Source: Candidatus Eiseniibacteriota bacterium (lineage in GTDB: Bacteria; Eisenbacteria; RBG-16-71-46; JABDJR01). Taken from it: a DNA stretch of 64,000 nt. Both the position numbers and the translations under genes were made by a program. The stretch lies in the NCBI GenBank assembly GCA_963762255.1, contig CAVXKA010000001.1:384001-448000 (forward strand), given 5' to 3'. The notes under the pieces are model-generated. The model searched no databases, was not told the DNA's origin, and saw nothing but the letters and a program-made list of their open reading frames with translations. Each line of letters begins with the position of its first letter. Position 1 is the first letter of the stretch. Shown here piece after piece: positions 4,319 through 47,711 of this stretch.

Positions 4319-5767
4319 TCACCGCAACACGACAAGCGGTCGCGCGACGCGCCGGCCTTCCGCCTCCAAGGTGACGACATAGCGCCCGGATGCGACAGGG
4401 ACCCGCGCGTCGTCGCGCAGATCCCACGCGAGGCGTTGCTCGCCCGCGTCCGACCAGCCGGAGTGCAACAGTCGCACGACTCGTCCAGCCACGTCGTGTA
4501 TCTGAACGCGCGTGTCGCCGGCGCGCTCCAGCCGGAACGCGATCGTGGTTGCACTGTGCGCCGGATGCGGCGCCGTGGCATGCAGCGCGAGCCCCGCCGA
4601 GGGCGCGACGACCGGTACTGCCGTGACCTCTCCCCCCCGCAGTACGGCCACGCGCCGCGACTCGTGGAGCGCGGCGACCAAGTCGGGCCAGTCGTCGGAG
4701 TTCACGTCGCCCACCGCGACCGAGGCTACCGGCTCCCCGAGCGACATCACGGTGTCAAGGGTGAACGCTCCCGCGTCGTTGATGAGCAGCGCGATCGTCC
4801 CGGTCGGACCGGCGGTGACGATGTCGAGATCCTCGTCCAGATCCACATCGGCCACAGCGAACGTCGAGAGCGGCGCTCCTACCGGCACCACAGTCGGCGC
4901 CAGGTAGGGCGTCTGACCGTCGCTTGGGTACACAGAGACCACGCCGCCTGCCGGACCGCTCGAGGCCACCACCAGGTCGTACCAGCCGTTGGCCGTGATC
5001 TCCGCAATCGTCACCGCCTTCGGCACCGCCTCCGCGGCGAGCGAGTCGGCGAGGTAGTAGTAATAGCGCTCGTAGTACTCGTACTCTGCGGTGAGCAGCG
5101 TCACGCGCCCCGGGTCCGCGCCCGGGTTCCCGTTGGCCACGACCGCATCGCCGACGCCGTCGTAGTTGAAGTCGATGGATGCGATCCCGCAGGGAGATGG
5201 ACCGGCCGCACCACTCGTGCGCCAGAAGAAGTTGCGCTCCCCGTCCGCTTCGTAATGCGTGAGCATCCCCGAGGCCCCTGCGGTCTCGAACCCGGGGGCC
5301 ACCCCCCAGAAGCCCTGGGAAATCGTGATGGCGCAGGGACCGGCGCTGGTGGGATAGGAGACCGGCGCTTCGAAGCCGGCGCCGGTTACGCCGAACAGCA
5401 CGGATGCGGTATTGGACAAGGAGTCCGCGGTCACCACGTCGAGGTCGTTGTCGGCGTCGAAGTCGACGATCGCCATCGCCACCGGATGCGCGCCGGTCGC
5501 ATAGGCAACCGGTGTCGAGAAGACGCCGCCGCCGTCTCCCGTGAGCACGGTCACCACGCTCGTGCTGTCGTTGGAGGTGACCACATCGAGCGTGCTGTTT
5601 CCGTCGAGGTCCGCGAGCGCCACCGCGCGCGGGGCCGGACCCACGGGCCAGTACGCGGGCGTGCCGAAGAGGAGGCCGGCGTGGGCGGGGGCGTGCGCGC
5701 CCAAGAGAAGCGCGATTGCGACGGTCGCGCCTACGCCGCGCAGGGCAGAGAGCATCACGTAGTTCAT
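4319..5767 (-). CDS. Secreted FG-GAP/VCBS repeat protein with C-terminal FlgD-Ig-like (secretion CTD-like) domain
   Basis: Signal peptide; repeated DxDGxxDxV motifs (ADLDGNSTLDVV, DFDADNDLDVV, DVNSDDWPDLV); C-terminal IHDVAGRVVR..WDLRDD..ASGRYVV. Confidence 0.85.
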   Translation of the reverse strand: MNYVMLSALRGVGATVAIALLLGAHAPAHAGLLFGTPAYWPVGPAPRAVALADLDGNSTLDVVTSNDSTSVVTVLTGDGGGVFSTPVAYATGAHPVAMAIVDFDADNDLDVVTADSLSNTASVLFGVTGAGFEAPVSYPTSAGPCAITISQGFWGVAPGFETAGASGMLTHYEADGERNFFWRTSGAAGPSPCGIASIDFNYDGVGDAVVANGNPGADPGRVTLLTAEYEYYERYYYYLADSLAAEAVPKAVTIAEITANGWYDLVVASSGPAGGVVSVYPSDGQTPYLAPTVVPVGAPLSTFAVADVDLDEDLDIVTAGPTGTIALLINDAGAFTLDTVMSLGEPVASVAVGDVNSDDWPDLVAALHESRRVAVLRGGEVTAVPVVAPSAGLALHATAPHPAHSATTIAFRLERAGDTRVQIHDVAGRVVRLLHSGWSDAGEQRLAWDLRDDARVPVASGRYVVTLEAEGRRVARPLVVLR

Positions 5768-5890: not shown

Positions 5891-6598
5891 GTGACGCCCA
5901 TGAACACACACCCTAGCCGCTGCACCGTCTGCCAGTCTCAACCGCCCGGTTTTGCCTGTGGCCTCAATCCCCGGGTTCAAGCCGCCGTCGGTACGGCAAC
6001 GGTCACGCAGGCGTATCGTCGCGGGCAGACCGTCTTCCTCGCGGGAACACCTGCCAGCGCGCTCTACGTCGTTCATTCCGGCCAGGTCAAGATCTTCCGC
6101 GGCGGACTCGGGGGGGAAGTTCAGGTGATCCGGGTGCTCGGGCCGGGTGAGATCCTCGGGTACCGCCCCCTGCTGGCAAATGAGCTATACGCTTCCAGCG
6201 GTGAGGCGGTCGAGGATTCCGCCCTCTGCGTCATTCCCGCGGCGATCGTCCGCGATCTCTTGCGCGACATCCCCGAGTTCGCGATCGAACTCCTCGCCAA
6301 GCTGGCGCGCGAGCTGCGTGTGTCCGAGGACTTGATGATGGGTCTTCTCCACCATCCGGTCCGCAGGCGTGCCGCCCGGGTGCTCCTCGCCCTGCTCGAA
6401 GATAATCGGCACGCGTCCGACCCGATGATCCTCCGGACCCGCCACCTCCGCCGTCAGGACATGGCGCGCATGATCGGGACGACGCCCGAGACCTTCTCTC
6501 GTGTGCTGCGGGACTTCTGCCAGCGCGGGATGGTCTCCCTCTCGCGCGACCACATCCGTGTCCGCGACATGGATCTGCTCAAGAAGGCGGCCGGGTAG
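5891..6598 (+). CDS. Crp/Fnr family transcriptional regulator (FNR-like Cys cluster)
   Basis: cNMP-binding fold (LYVVHSGQVK..GPGEILG), HTH with GTTPETFSR, N-terminal CxxC-x8-C and a central Cys. Confidence 0.9.
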   Translation: MTPMNTHPSRCTVCQSQPPGFACGLNPRVQAAVGTATVTQAYRRGQTVFLAGTPASALYVVHSGQVKIFRGGLGGEVQVIRVLGPGEILGYRPLLANELYASSGEAVEDSALCVIPAAIVRDLLRDIPEFAIELLAKLARELRVSEDLMMGLLHHPVRRRAARVLLALLEDNRHASDPMILRTRHLRRQDMARMIGTTPETFSRVLRDFCQRGMVSLSRDHIRVRDMDLLKKAAG

Positions 6599-6776
6599 GC
6601 CCGTCGAGCCCGCCCGCGCGGATCCGACCACCCACCTCGCTCAGCGGCTGATCTCAGCCGCGGTTGCGTCGAATCGCCCGGGCAGCATGGGTGCCGAGCA
6701 TCGTGACAGCGCCCGACTGCCCTCGCAGGACGATAGGGCACAAGCAGTTGAGTATTTGAGCCCCAACCTCGCAAGA

Positions 6777-6792
6777 TGGATCCGGAATTGCA
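6777..6792 (+). promoter_or_regulatory. Putative sigma54 (-24/-12) promoter of the GEWQW-bearing lipoprotein
   Basis: TGGATCCGGAATTGCA has GG and TTGCA at the exact spacing of TGGCAC-N5-TTGCW. An IHF-like CAA-N4-TTG (CAAGCAGTTG) lies at 6741-6750. Confidence 0.6.
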
Positions 6793-6835
6793 TATCTCAC
6801 AGTCGGGGGCAGCAAAACAAGCAGATGAGGCAACC

Positions 6836-7507
6836 ATGAGAACGATGAGAAAGACACCGATGCTTCTAGCCCTCTTCGGGCTCGCCCTTGCGGCGTGGGT
6901 CGTTCTCCCCGGTTGCGGGGGGGAGAATGACCTGGTCACATCTCCCTCCGCCTCCCAATGGGCGAGCGGCGATCCCGCCAGCTTCTCCCCGCCTGAAGGA
7001 GGCCTGACTGATAGAAGGATAGTGGGGGGAACTCATTTCGCCACCTGGACTCTTGTGGCCAGCGGCTGGGTGACCCCCGAGGCGTCCGTCAAAGTGGAAG
7101 GCTCGCGCTACTCGCTGAAGTTCCCGAAGGGAGGCGTAGCGAAGCGAGAGTTCATCACCATCTGCGAGCGCGACCCGATGGTGGCCGACGTGGAGTTTGG
7201 ACCGCATGGGACATGGTTCGTCATTCCCGTGGAAGTGACGATCGATTACAAGGGAACCTCCAACGACCCCGAATCGAAGAACTACAACGGGATGGAGCCC
7301 GCGGTCTTCTGGTACGACCCGGTGGCGCGGGCCTGGCAGCCCATCCCTTTCACGGCGGACAAAAATCTCAAGAAGGTCACGTTCTACCTGGAGCACTTCT
7401 CCCGCTACGCACTGCAGGGCGCGACCGATGACGGCGAGTGGCAGTGGACGCGAACCGGGAAGCAAACCGAAGACCCCTTGGGCGAGGGCCCGTCAGATCT
7501 GAATTGA
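6836..7507 (+). CDS. Lipoprotein with ZU5-like beta domain and C-terminal GEWQW motif
   Basis: ATG 6836 after GAGG; lipobox LPGC; FGPHGTWFVIPVEVTI and EHFSRYAL segments; tail DDGEWQWTRTG. Confidence 0.8.
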   Translation: MRTMRKTPMLLALFGLALAAWVVLPGCGGENDLVTSPSASQWASGDPASFSPPEGGLTDRRIVGGTHFATWTLVASGWVTPEASVKVEGSRYSLKFPKGGVAKREFITICERDPMVADVEFGPHGTWFVIPVEVTIDYKGTSNDPESKNYNGMEPAVFWYDPVARAWQPIPFTADKNLKKVTFYLEHFSRYALQGATDDGEWQWTRTGKQTEDPLGEGPSDLN

Positions 7508-7529
7508 GATAGAACCTCTGTCCTGTGCG

Positions 7530-7567
7530 GCGGCAAGGGGCCGGCTTCACTGCCGGCCCCTTGCCGC
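7530..7567. terminator. Hairpin terminator between convergent genes
   Basis: Perfect 16-bp stem GCGGCAAGGGGCCGGC / GCCGGCCCCTTGCCGC with loop TTCACT. Confidence 0.75.
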
Positions 7568-7579
7568 GCCCCCCCCCGA

Positions 7580-8917
7580 TTACGCCGCCCCGCCGGGGCT
7601 CCTCCTCAACGCCTCGAAGCGCGGGAGACCGTGCAGCGACTCCAGGTCCGAATCGTTCTCCATCCATCCTCGCCACAACTCGCCGTGCACGACGGTCTTC
7701 TCCAGGCAGTCGATCGCCCGCTCGGCGTTGCCCAGCAGGGCGTACACACAGGCGACGTTGTAGAGAACCTGGGGTTCATCCGGGTCGATCGCCAGCGCCC
7801 GCTCGGCCCACTTGTGGGCCTCGTCCAAGCGCTCGCCCAGTTGGCACAGCGCGATCGCGCTGAAGTACAGGGCGCGGGTCTGGCCGGGGTTCACCTCGAG
7901 GTGCTTCTGCGCCAGCTCGACACACCGGCGATATGTGGCGTCCGATTCCGCCTTCAGGCCGAGACCGCGAAGCGCGCTGCCCAGCAGCGCGGGCGCCTGG
8001 TAATCCTCGGGGTCAGCCTCGCACGCGCGGCGAAACCAGTACACGGCGTGGTCCTTCTTGCCCTGCGCGTAGAACCCCCGCCCGAAGAAGTAGTAGGCCT
8101 CGAACAGCGTGGGGTCCAGACGGATCGCGGTCCGGAACTCCCGTTCCGCTTCCTCGTAGTTCTTGCGCAACGACACCGCGACGCCGCGCGCGACGTGCGC
8201 CTCGGCGAGTTCCCCGTCCAATTCCACCGCCCTGCGGCTGGCGCGATCGGCCGCCTCAATGCTCTCCTCGTTCGAGTCCCAAAACATGCACAGATAGGAA
8301 TGACAATCCGCAAGACCTGCGTGCGCGCCGGCGTACTCGGGATCGATCTCGATGGCGCGCTCGAACATCCGGCGCGCGAACTCGATGCTCTTCCGCCTGA
8401 ACTGGCGGAAGTACTGGCGGCCTTGCAGACCAAATTCGTACGCCTCGACGCTGGTGGTGGGCGCCTTGGCGATCGCCCGCCGCTCCTCCTCGCTGAGAAC
8501 GACCTTCAACGTCTCCGTGATGGCCTGCGCGATCTCGGCCTGTATGGCGAAGACATCCTCGATCTCCCGATCGAATCGTTCCGCCCAGATCGTGCGCGCG
8601 CTCTGCGTTTCCACCAACTGCACCGACAGGCGCAGGTGGTTCTTGGCCCGCCGCAGACTACCCTCCAGGACAAACGCCGCGTCGAGTTCGCGACCGGCCT
8701 GGACAGCGTCGATCGGTTTGTCGCGGAGGGGGCGCACCGAGGAGAGCGACATCACCGAGAGACCGCTGATTCGCGAGAGTTCGATGATGACGTCCTCGGT
8801 CACTCCATCGCGGAAATACTCATCTGTCTTCGATCCACCCGGATTCTGGAAATACAGAACGGCCAGGGAGGTTCCGGCCTTGCTCGCTCCCCCGCCCGCC
8901 AACCACGGCGACTCCAT
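7580..8917 (-). CDS. TolB-N-like plus TPR protein (stand-alone adenylate cyclase/kinase-associated sensory module)
   Basis: SLAVLYFQN..YFRDGVTEDVIIELSRI..VLEGSLRR..WAERFDRE..FAIQ motif set followed by TPRs and LYNVACVYAL. Confidence 0.85.
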   Translation of the reverse strand: MESPWLAGGGASKAGTSLAVLYFQNPGGSKTDEYFRDGVTEDVIIELSRISGLSVMSLSSVRPLRDKPIDAVQAGRELDAAFVLEGSLRRAKNHLRLSVQLVETQSARTIWAERFDREIEDVFAIQAEIAQAITETLKVVLSEEERRAIAKAPTTSVEAYEFGLQGRQYFRQFRRKSIEFARRMFERAIEIDPEYAGAHAGLADCHSYLCMFWDSNEESIEAADRASRRAVELDGELAEAHVARGVAVSLRKNYEEAEREFRTAIRLDPTLFEAYYFFGRGFYAQGKKDHAVYWFRRACEADPEDYQAPALLGSALRGLGLKAESDATYRRCVELAQKHLEVNPGQTRALYFSAIALCQLGERLDEAHKWAERALAIDPDEPQVLYNVACVYALLGNAERAIDCLEKTVVHGELWRGWMENDSDLESLHGLPRFEALRRSPGGAA

Positions 8918-46200: not shown

Positions 46201-46473
46201 GTGCACGTTGCCCGAGTACCACGAGCCGTCGCCGGCGAACCCGGGGTCGTAAGAGCCCTCCGCGTTGTTGTTGGCCGGATTGCCGTCGAAGAACCGGTCG
46301 GTGAAAATCTGGTAGATCGGCACGTCGCGCCAATCGGCCGGCGACGGTGTATACACGGCGGGTGCAGCGACTGCGGCGGGCGCGCCGAGCGGCACCCGCG
46401 GCGCGAGCGGCAAAGCAAGCGCGAGCGTGAACGCCAACGTGAGCGCAGATGCGATGACAATCCGCCGCATCAT
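43288..46473 (-). CDS. Secreted GH13 alpha-amylase-family protein with Ig-like, beta-propeller and CTD domains
   Basis: IYQIFTDRF, GGDF.G, DGFRIDTVKH, GEV and FLDNHD motifs; Big_5-like FNRAMN; tail VFPNP..GVYF. Confidence 0.9.
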   Translation of the reverse strand: MMRRIVIASALTLAFTLALALPLAPRVPLGAPAAVAAPAVYTPSPADWRDVPIYQIFTDRFFDGNPANNNAEGSYDPGFAGDGSWYSGNVHGGDFAGVMEKLDYIQGLGFKAIWISPVVVNVWGEHHGYAARDFKAIAPHFGTQAELRALADALHARGMYLVVDIVCNHMGDMIDSGTSGYPAFHDDPSPYVLRWRTSKRPGGLFNNLAWFHNNGGIQNWVDPDQVLGELSSLDDLKTEDPSVVAGLVDAMNWLIDVSDCDGFRIDTVKHVDMPFWQTWTPAVRAHAASLGKNNIFFYGEVFDGSDAKCGSYTGTKAGGAFTLDSVLYFPMKWTMDNVFAFGQRTSLLTDRYAALGNYDPAAQERLVTFLDNHDVARFLSSGGAAQDATKLNAALDFMLTTRGVPCVYQGTEQAFDGGGDPYDREDMWDGAWEYGPSLGDNFNMTHPLYKRTRDLNDIRSRYDALRTGAFTELKSEAGAGIYAYRRAGATEDVVVVLNSSSAARSSGSLSTGWTFGTALADLRDPSFSLSVGSGGSISLTVPARHARILVRSSAVTGATPAVDTQSPAHAATTASPRPALRLGFNRAMNHASVEAAFSVIPAVPGAFTWEADSAVVFTPSQDWSEGSVIALHLDASATASDATPMRVAFETFFTIAGGIPGLTVASGFHATEFASGSGIGVPMGIAAGESGAWSDNIYVGDALNNRVLRITTAGTVSVLASGSFLSKPEGLDFDHAGAFAGDLVIADPNGLLRVTSAGVVSQIAAGTNATNTGALACLPAGPLGGFPYLVSNTSNRVERYEAGTGYVPFASPVNGAEGVAPALGMFGFGRRLLVADPDLAAYASSIDGTSSILFADSTGALSTFVQNPTLLNGVCAMVVDTRGQFEGDLLVANIATETVLRITPAGAISVLASGFGNLFASDCLTIGPDGALYVVDTGSGEPFTDSSGGTAVARIVRVAADTSTGTPGGGGEPPPPFLSVFPNPLSGAGTARFRLEREAMVTLDLFDIRGRRVATPFAGMLPAGPAEVRLDFGAGSLARGVYFARVAANGVSISSTRVVLR

Positions 46474-47711
46474 CGCGCCCTCACCGCACGCACGGTGCGC
46501 ACGCTTCCTCGGCGGTCTTCCGCGCGAATCCAGTAGATCCCGGGACCGACGTCGAGCCCCGCGGCATCGCGCCCGTCCCATCGCCAGGGTTGTCCCCCCA
46601 CCGCTTCATGCCGCACCACTCGTCCCTCCGCGTTAAGCACCCACATGCGATCCGCCTTCCATGCATCCGTGGACCCCACCGCCACCGAACCCAGAAACGG
46701 GCTCGGCCAGGCGACCAGCCCCGCCATCGTCGCAGGCCCGAGCTCGCCCACTGCAAGCTGCGACGTGTCCACCAACAGCTCACCCATCACGAACCCGGTC
46801 ATCGTCGCCCGGCTCACCCCCAGGAGGTGCGCGATCGTCGCGCCGACATCCTCCTGACGGCGGGGTTGAGAACTGATCACCCCGGGCAGGAAGTCCGGGC
46901 CTCGCGCGATCAGGAAGAGCGTGCGGCAACCCGGGCAGCCGTCGCCGTGCGCTGTGAACCCACCATGCGCGTCGTCGTGACGGCCGTGATCGGCGGTCAC
47001 GATCAGGTCGGTGTCCCCGGCCAGAATCGGGTCGGCCTGGATGAAGTCCCAGAGCGCGCCGGCCAGGGAGTCGGCGCGGCTCAGCGCGCTCAGGTAACCG
47101 GTCCAGCTTCCGGTGTGCGCGGCCAGATCCACCGAGGCAAAGTTGAGGCACATGAAAGTCGGGTGATCGGCCGCCAGCACCGCGGTCGCGGCGCCGAAGG
47201 TCGTGGGGTCATTGCGCAGGGCGACGTTCAACGAGGCACCGTAGGCGGCCCCAAACCCCGGGTAGGTGCTGTACGTGAGGGCCGAGAACTTGTCCTTCCC
47301 TCCGATCATCCAGACCGAGGACTGAGGGAGCCCCTTTTCCTTGCGGAGCAATTCGAAGAGCGTGGGTCGGGTCGGCCGCTGCGTCGCGTCGTTGGCGATG
47401 AGCTGCGTCGTGCCGGTGATGAGGGTGGAGTGCCCGGGGAGGGTCTCCGTCTTCCCCATGTTCGAGAAGGCCGTGATCCACCCGCCGGAGGGGGCGAGCA
47501 TGCCGCTCAGGACCGGCGCGCGCGGGTATCCGGGCTCGGCAAGGAACTCCGTCTGGCGCGGCCCATCGATGACCAGAAGCACGACATGGCCTGCGGCGGC
47601 CCACGCCGAGGCTGCGGCGCCAAAAATCAGGCCGCAGGTGACCGCGACCACCAGGGCGAAGCGTCGTCTCAGCCCCCCGTCAGGGGGCCTGCGCCAGGAA
47701 AAGCGGGTCAT
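46470..47711 (-). CDS. Secreted alkaline phosphatase/phosphodiesterase superfamily protein with CTD
   Basis: LLVIDG, T.PGH..LITG, D.AAH and TADHG motifs; tail WDGRD..PGIYW. Confidence 0.8.
   Translation of the reverse strand: MTRFSWRRPPDGGLRRRFALVVAVTCGLIFGAAASAWAAAGHVVLLVIDGPRQTEFLAEPGYPRAPVLSGMLAPSGGWITAFSNMGKTETLPGHSTLITGTTQLIANDATQRPTRPTLFELLRKEKGLPQSSVWMIGGKDKFSALTYSTYPGFGAAYGASLNVALRNDPTTFGAATAVLAADHPTFMCLNFASVDLAAHTGSWTGYLSALSRADSLAGALWDFIQADPILAGDTDLIVTADHGRHDDAHGGFTAHGDGCPGCRTLFLIARGPDFLPGVISSQPRRQEDVGATIAHLLGVSRATMTGFVMGELLVDTSQLAVGELGPATMAGLVAWPSPFLGSVAVGSTDAWKADRMWVLNAEGRVVRHEAVGGQPWRWDGRDAAGLDVGPGIYWIRAEDRRGSVRTVRAVRAR

Follow-up and report, generated by a model that had tools for sequence, protein, structure and literature searches.

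A sigma54-driven lipoprotein of Candidatus Eiseniibacteriota with a probably self-cleaving ZU5/MAIN-like domain and a conserved tryptophan tail

PIDD and Nup98 are cleaved at the motif histidine-phenylalanine-serine (HFS), which lies at the C-terminal end of a ZU5-like domain (PMC3210808). Bacterial ZU5 autopeptidases in toxins and surface proteins have been described, as has a ZU5-GPS-Nup98 superfamily (PMC3482391). In bacteria, the microbial GAIN-like autoproteolysis-inducing (MAIN) domains have YfkN from Bacillus subtilis as their prototype (Brogan and Rudner, bioRxiv 2026, 10.64898/2026.05.12.724683). Edman sequencing places the cut of these domains between F and S of the HFS motif, and the cleavage products remain associated, non-covalently (bioRxiv 10.64898/2026.05.12.724683). 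The subject of this text is a gene for a 223-residue lipoprotein whose domain probably belongs with these autoproteolytic modules. It lies at positions 6836-7507 of a stretch of 64,000 nucleotides from a Candidatus Eiseniibacteriota bacterium (contig CAVXKA010000001.1, positions 384,001 to 448,000), hereafter the window. An earlier note on this DNA had drawn attention to the pentapeptide GEWQW in the tail of the protein, which is shared with a small open reading frame (sORF) of the same window, and had proposed that the lipoprotein is a membrane-tethered version of the same ligand, co-regulated with the free peptide.

The lipoprotein and the published MAIN proteins are alike in being secreted envelope proteins with a beta-sandwich that ends in an HFS motif cut between F and S and with products that stay associated, although here these properties are predicted. 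In addition, the profile of the lipoprotein family reaches multidomain proteins of the published architecture, which are anchored by SLH domains. The differences concern the arrangement of the parts. Published MAIN proteins average 158 kDa and consist of a signal peptide, enzymes or adhesins, the MAIN domain and an anchor at the C-terminus, with the N-terminal cargo being released, whereas the lipoprotein has an N-terminal lipid anchor, no cargo or ectodomain, and only 7-35 residues after the cut, in a tail that holds no anchor. It does not, then, have the published MAIN architecture. The word "lipoprotein" is absent from the main text of the MAIN preprint, whose supplementary tables might list such forms, and a literature search on lipoprotein-type GAIN or MAIN domains found nothing relevant.

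With the ZU5, FIIND and Nup98 proteins (PIDD, NLRP1, CARD8 and Nup98), the family has in common an HFS (or SFS) triad at the C-terminal end of a ZU5-like sandwich, a conserved strand after the cut, and a weak but recurrent similarity to the Pfam ZU5 model. Those proteins, however, are eukaryotic, act in the cytosol or at the nuclear pore, and carry large C-terminal parts (UPA-CARD, Nup96), in contrast to the short Trp tail of a bacterial lipoprotein. The GAIN domain of adhesion G protein-coupled receptors, with its tethered agonist, is similar in concept, since there too a short peptide, after autoproteolysis, lies buried as the last strand and is exposed upon disturbance. Here, however, the peptide would have no attached receptor, and the relation between the folds is an inferred one, for which no membership is claimed.

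The gene and the elements around it are the following:

6644-6661, unstranded: perfect 8-2-8 palindrome GCGGCTGA-TC-TCAGCCGC, a candidate enhancer site for a bacterial enhancer-binding protein (bEBP), 116-133 nt upstream of the -24 element
6777-6792, + strand: sigma54-type -24/-12 element TGGATC-CGGAA-TTGCA (TGGATCCGGAATTGCA), of the form TGG-N8-TTGC (GG-N10-GC)
6827-6830, + strand: GAGG, the ribosome-binding site of the ATG at 6836, at a spacing of 5 nt, read from the sequence; GA-GGC is kept in the three-way alignment
6836-7507, + strand: lipoprotein gene (223 residues and stop), an open reading frame (ORF) with ten orthologs and 685 related clusters and no Pfam or NCBIfam match
6836-6916, + strand: signal peptide and lipobox L-P-G-C, with the Cys27 codon at 6914-6916, from the conservation of C27 and G26 in alignment A3
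7043-7399, + strand: predicted ZU5/MAIN-like beta-sandwich domain, about residues 70-188, from weak ZU5 matches in the family and profile links
7394-7402, + strand: His187-Phe188-Ser189, the predicted autoproteolysis triad, with the cut between F188 and S189; each residue at least 90% conserved in 98 homologs
7400-7504, + strand: tail S189-N223, 35 residues, the predicted C-terminal cleavage product, composed of SRYA[LM], a variable linker, DGEWQWTRTG and a variable end
7433-7447, + strand: GEWQW codons, EWQW being invariant in orthologs
7530-7567, unstranded: perfect hairpin of 16 bp, lying between the lipoprotein gene and the TPR gene convergent with it (-47 kcal/mol, z = -5.54)

The reading proposed here, to which a probability of about 0.5 can be assigned, is that of a sigma54-driven lipoprotein with a self-cleaving ZU5/MAIN-like domain and a Trp tail that is held or released, the match to the sORF being a matter of convergence or chance. 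The segment 6836-7507 would be transcribed as a single-gene sigma54 unit, and the protein would consist of the lipid anchor, about 40 residues of linker, a beta-sandwich of the ZU5/MAIN superfamily and the 35-residue tail. By analogy with PIDD, Nup98, FIIND and the bacterial MAIN domains, Ser189 would attack the Phe188-Ser189 bond. The mature form may then be a lipid-anchored domain that non-covalently keeps the peptide SRYAL...DGEWQWTRTG... through the conserved SRYA[LM] strand, and the Trp motif could serve for recognition or docking, within a peptide that disturbance of the domain might expose or shed.

The best start codon is the ATG at 6836, which has GAGG upstream, and not the in-frame ATG at 6776, which falls within the promoter-like element; in the L120 ortholog this DNA element is present but not in frame, which places the conservation around ATG 6776 at the DNA level. 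From 6836 the protein begins with MRTMRKT, followed by a hydrophobic core and then L-P-G-C, where the Pro at -2 is unusual. That the product is a lipoprotein, as the earlier note had it, is borne out by the alignment of 98 homologs (A3), in which Cys27 is invariant and Gly26 at least 90% conserved. The gene stands alone, since its neighbours vary from one ortholog to the next.

No Pfam or NCBIfam family matches the 223-residue protein, with Pfam returning none even at E 10. The family is nonetheless large: besides ten orthologs at 48-86% identity, a profile search of 1.84 billion representatives recovered 685 proteins at E <=1e-3, each standing for a cluster at 50% identity. Homologs occur in 27 of 61 relatives and, at E <=1e-15, in 36 of 206 phylum genomes, the same set as was used for the class search, in which the unpublished genome G054 is counted only among those without a match. 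A search for related loci added one genome locus and three metagenome loci. The matches to homologs end near residue 195, at the hallmark H-F-S-R-Y-A, which agrees with the claim that the GEWQW motif sits just after the folded domain.

The identity of the domain is suggested by the triad and by profile links. The triad has the form H-[hydrophobic]-S/T, the domain match ends about 6 residues past it, and the conservation of H187, F188, S189 and Y191 is at least 90% in each case, across 98 sequences whose identity to this protein goes down to 24%. Weak Pfam ZU5 matches are found in 46 of the 98 members (best E 8.4e-4), and a FIIND match in one. Searched against 1.84 billion proteins, the family profile A2 matches P0118 (E 5.7e-13), P0121 (E 1.4e-12) and P0152 (E 3.5e-10), three proteins with several domains, and these score 35.6, 55.2 and 30.2 bits with Pfam ZU5 itself, against a cut-off of 21. 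The domain-only profile A4 spans the same ZU5 stretches in all three and continues to their HFS (HFC in one copy), so that the profile matches overlap stretches called by Pfam and link the family to ZU5 transitively. In P0121 and P0152 the ZU5 stretch is followed by SLH anchors, which is the published MAIN architecture. In the former, a 1677-residue SLH surface protein, it is one of two ZU5-like copies (about 1008-1078) that ends in H-F-C, possibly a variant with a Cys nucleophile. The ZU5 profile links, the conservation of HFS and the literature on PIDD, Nup98 and MAIN taken together indicate that the domain is probably ZU5/MAIN-like and self-cleaving at F188/S189. The proposal that the tail could be released by proteolysis thereby gains a concrete basis, in the form of a near-invariant predicted HFS triad 12 residues upstream of the motif.

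The tail, which reads ...HFSRYALQGATDDGEWQWTRTG... around the motif, is conserved in a very selective manner. E201, W202, Q203 and W204 are invariant in all 14 orthologs of the EWQW clade (36-86% identity) and the flanks vary; conservation of the motif among lipoprotein orthologs, a check set beforehand, is thus found. In the wider family, HFS followed by a short tail is present in 117 of 150 representatives. These tails end in G-x-[AGS]-[GDEN]-W in 40 cases, carry that motif with an extension in 13, EWQW in 6 and some other Trp in 22, while the remaining 36 lack Trp, ending 6-8 residues past the Ser. In total 81 of the 117 carry Trp, whose frequency is 5.0% in the tails versus 2.0% outside them. 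In alignments, the first Trp of EWQW falls on the terminal Trp of the family, for instance in tails ending GTGEW. EWQW is, as judged from these alignments, an elaboration by one clade of the tail found family-wide, which has G-x-[A/G]-[G/D/E]-W as its end. Many members extend no further than 6-8 residues past the Ser, which places the Trp motif outside the minimal fold, and the tail types together with the Trp alignment make it an accessory element with an ancestry of its own.

The consensus of the sigma54 -24 box is TGGCAC. The element upstream of the lipoprotein gene resembles known sigma54 (RpoN) promoters in its GG-N10-GC spacing, in the TTGC at -12, in the presence of rpoN and 23 bEBP genes, and in a palindrome about 120 nt upstream, but differs in its -24 box, which reads TGGATC. 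Strict sigma54 patterns are no more frequent in the genome than in reversed controls (7 vs 7; 50 vs 64), so that a site in a single genome proves nothing and conservation was used instead. TGG-N8-TTGC[A/T] is invariant in all three orthologs (G000, G001 and L120), with the 8-nt spacer and the surroundings varying, and lies at the right distance from the start codon. Among 48 distinct upstream regions of the family, 39 hold a forward site scoring at least 12, versus 6 for the reverse complement and 8 for the reversed sequence, and at a score of at least 13 the numbers are 14 versus 0 and 2. The sigma54-type promoter claimed from the sequence of the window therefore finds support in its conservation. 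No sigma70-like promoter was found in 6400-7700. The genome encodes rpoN and 23 strong bEBP genes, none of these being in the window.

The palindrome at 6644-6661 is present as described and has no second copy in the genome at 0 mismatches. All three ortholog upstream regions keep its core CTCAGCC unchanged, about 120 nt upstream, in spite of differing upstream genes, which makes the palindrome a candidate enhancer site. Folded as an RNA hairpin, it does not stand out (z = -1.92). The CAA-N4-TTG element that had also been pointed out, at 6741-6750, does exist but is trivial.

The comparison with the sORF requires three further features:

50431-50451, unstranded: enhancer-like palindrome of the sORF, the sole 0-mismatch copy in the genome, kept in 7 sORF loci
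50615-50629, + strand: sORF sigma54 promoter TGGCAC-GGCCG-TTGC (consensus), kept in 7 loci
50697-50789, + strand: sORF of 30 residues, with a 12-residue hydrophobic head and three GEWQW[Y/F] units, used for comparison

The 15-mer GGCGAGTGGCAGTGG at 7433-7447 recurs exactly once, at 50751-50765, as had been noted, and the identity between the two copies extends by another 2 nt on the left, to 17 nt. Since the five codons are in each case the most frequent ones, the identical DNA tells no more than the identical peptides do. In the whole 4.14 Mb genome (six frames, 8,273,500 residues), GEWQW and EWQW occur four times each, once in the lipoprotein tail, three times in the sORF and nowhere else. 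The expected number of GEWQW is 0.03 in the crude proteome (about 1.0 M residues), 0.21 in the six-frame genome and 0.003 in the six-frame window, and that of EWQW is 0.33 in the crude proteome and 2.2 in the six-frame genome. As an empirical check, DNA coding for [G/D/E]EWQW is present in 34 of the 206 phylum genomes; 30 loci among the 47 matches listed were translated, and 9 of them lie in long ORFs of high third-position GC content (GC3), in 9 other genomes and in unrelated proteins, none of which has HFS upstream. From the 34 genomes and the 9 in-frame ORFs follows a chance match of about 3-5% per genome, by which estimate the agreement between lipoprotein and sORF is uncommon, not extraordinary; among related genomes, about 4-5% carry this type of pentapeptide by chance. 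Elsewhere, ORFs of about 110 residues at L166 (G080) and L168 (G083) both end in ...RFDEEEWQW and represent an unrelated small protein with a conserved C-terminal EWQW.

Several observations weigh against the proposed reading. This protein itself does not reach the Pfam ZU5 (PF00791) cut-off and matches 0 families at E 10, and the sole match in a six-frame ZU5 scan of the genome, at 7190-7267 inside the gene, has 11 bits and E 1.48, which is not significant. Matches to the ankyrin and ZO-1 ZU5 domains in the PDB are marginal, with E 0.038 for A4 and 0.12-0.9 for A3. As a control for the scan, Pfam ZU5 does not register in B. subtilis, the source of the MAIN prototype, and therefore the link between ZU5 and MAIN consists of the shared HFS and the SLH architecture of P0121 and P0152, not of a direct comparison. 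The database ortholog P0009 reads T-P-S-S-R-Y where the copy from the G001 genome, L002, reads T-H-F-S-R-Y, which is either a difference due to sequencing or a strain variant that lacks the triad. In topology the protein is the opposite of the published MAIN proteins, whose anchor lies C-terminal of the cut in proteins of 158 kDa on average. Finally, an exact GEWQW match is expected by chance in only 3-5% of cases, and both genes are sigma54-driven, so that a real link between them retains some probability.

In one alternative the domain would be a non-catalytic ZU5-like binding module, with HFS as a structural turn, the Trp tail as a structural cap or as a membrane-interface or sorting element, and the sORF match again due to chance. 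Many eukaryotic ZU5 domains do not cleave, that of UNC5b having Leu at the Phe position (PMC3210808); the ZU5 scores of this protein are below threshold, and the reversed topology offers no obvious purpose for cleavage. Yet conservation of H, F and S at 90% or more each, in 98 sequences down to 24% identity, is what catalysis would lead one to expect, unlike the situation in non-cleaving ZU5 domains, and the bacterial HFS domains tested so far in the MAIN preprint do cleave (bioRxiv 10.64898/2026.05.12.724683). A module that does not cleave is, on balance, unlikely, while being the alternative that survives best.

The remaining alternatives all involve a real functional link between lipoprotein and sORF, which, taking every form of it together, is rather improbable; identity by convergence or chance is the most likely explanation. 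The sORF belongs to a genuine gene family, whose members have 24-30 residues, with a head M-x-x-I-I...L-x-G followed by 2-3 units of G-x-W-x-W-hydrophobic; genera g1 and g3 have GEWQW as the unit, and g4 has GAWEW or GQWEW. What the lipoprotein shares with this GxWxW-repeat family is the pentapeptide and sigma54 control. The sORFs, however, have tandem units, a hydrophobic head and a fixed genetic module, whereas the lipoprotein tail, with one unit, no head, a different locus and a different evolutionary origin, does not belong to the family. Units within one sORF are near-identical and differ between genera (L031-L037), a pattern of concerted change, and in G003 decay of the last unit has left GAGGWY, a sequence similar to the tail ends GKAGW and GKGGW of the lipoprotein family. 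Two other interpretations of the sORF were considered: a Trp attenuator was rejected because Gly, spacing and head are conserved as well as Trp, and a ribosomally synthesized and post-translationally modified peptide is unsupported, no radical-SAM or other maturase family having been found among the ORFs scanned around the sORF. The literature search on Trp-rich sigma54 sORFs returned nothing relevant.

The proposal of the earlier note, in which the tail is a membrane-tethered copy of the free GEWQW ligand and both act on one receptor (such as the MASE9 kinase) under common regulation, draws on the identical pentapeptide, found nowhere else in the genome against an expectation of 0.03, on the invariance of EWQW in both gene families of this genus, on the sigma54 promoters of the two genes, and on the HFS site as a way to free the tail. 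Consistent with it, genus g4, which lacks the lipoprotein, has sORF units that drifted to GAWEW or GQWEW. Co-regulation, however, is not supported, as no enhancer site is shared: the sORF palindrome is unique in the genome and, in agreement with the earlier note, which had seen no clear copy, none is present near the lipoprotein gene at up to 4 mismatches. The kinase also forms a conserved module of its own with the sORF. The segment 48970-52707 encodes the MASE9 histidine kinase at 48970-50400, the sORF with a terminator, and a 581-residue protein without a family, in an order kept in all five related loci with enough flank; the window holds no response regulator or bEBP.

The distributions of the two genes are uncoupled as well. 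The sORF is found in 7 of the 206 genomes and is confined to one family of the phylum, while the lipoprotein family is widespread, mostly in genomes without the sORF. EWQW lipoproteins occur only in G000 and G001 among the 206 genomes, and 5 of the 7 sORF genomes have none. The four sORF genomes of genus g4 lack a detectable lipoprotein homolog, except for a match in G007 that covers only the signal peptide, and hold no protein with their own cores GAWEW or GQWEW beyond the sORF, the matches being out of frame or in an unrelated lipoprotein. The latter is a small W-rich protein (PGHWEW...GYRWVEGHW), found at L091 (G007), L112 (G005) and L116 (G006), that is not of the ZU5-like family. G003 has a GEWQW sORF, yet its lipoprotein homologs end in GTADW or DDFEQWK, and the other EWQW DNA matches in G002 and G003 are out of frame. 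No covariation of sORF units and lipoprotein tails could be shown. Given further that the motif has its first Trp from the terminal Trp of the family, and that about 9 of the 30 examined matches elsewhere (among the 47 listed) are chance in-frame occurrences, a tethered and co-regulated copy of the sORF ligand is quite unlikely.

A broader version, in which such lipoproteins act as loaded springs, the self-cut domain keeping a cryptic Trp-ended peptide that is shed on envelope disturbance and that in this genus acts on the same receptor (e.g., the MASE9 kinase) as the GEWQW-repeat mini-protein, so that tethered and free forms would be one signal, is very doubtful. Least probable of all is a mimicry with the lipoprotein in the role of receptor, in which the GEWQW of its tail docks on its domain and the free three-copy peptide displaces it, switching the lipoprotein: this would account for the exact match and for strict conservation in a tail outside the minimal fold, and the cleavage products of this domain type do stay non-covalently associated (bioRxiv 10.64898/2026.05.12.724683), but the distributions are uncoupled and there is no evidence for a 30-residue peptide leaving the cytoplasmic membrane.

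As for the surroundings of the gene, a Crp/Fnr-family regulator (cNMP-binding and HTH_Crp_2 domains) is encoded directly upstream on the same strand, at 5891-6598, and is not syntenic in G001. Downstream, the hairpin at 7530-7567 was not called by the terminator scan because it has no T-run. Two secreted proteins of the window, at 4319-5767 (an FG-GAP repeat protein) and 46470-47711 (a phosphodiesterase-like protein), have FlgD_ig-type C-terminal domains, which are typical of such genomes. Sequencing runs, each with at most 0.14 of the sampled words, provided contigs from relatives that are 85-96% alike. Those from the RNA library of metatranscriptome X8 (88-96% alike) cover about 6904-7467 of a relative's gene, and give neither a transcription start nor proof of transcription. 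The contigs of relatives all stop matching at about 7464-7467, just past the conserved motif. Relatives are also present in DNA runs from soil, rhizosphere and groundwater.

The GEWQW pentapeptide common to the two genes provides a peptide-signalling hypothesis that is cheap to test, with the present evidence leaning against it. The meaning of the predicted cleavage is wider. If it takes place, this would be the smallest autoproteolytic architecture of the GAIN/ZU5/MAIN kind and the reverse of the known one, a lipid-anchored domain with a conserved Trp peptide (7-35 residues) as its sole detachable part. The presentation or release of a peptide, rather than the shedding of cargo, would then be a second bacterial use of the module, and would provide a handle on the function of a large unannotated family, with its 685 clusters at 50% identity and no Pfam or NCBIfam model. 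Moreover, the sigma54 promoters found across the family tie these lipoprotein genes to regulated responses of the envelope, in a phylum of which little is known.

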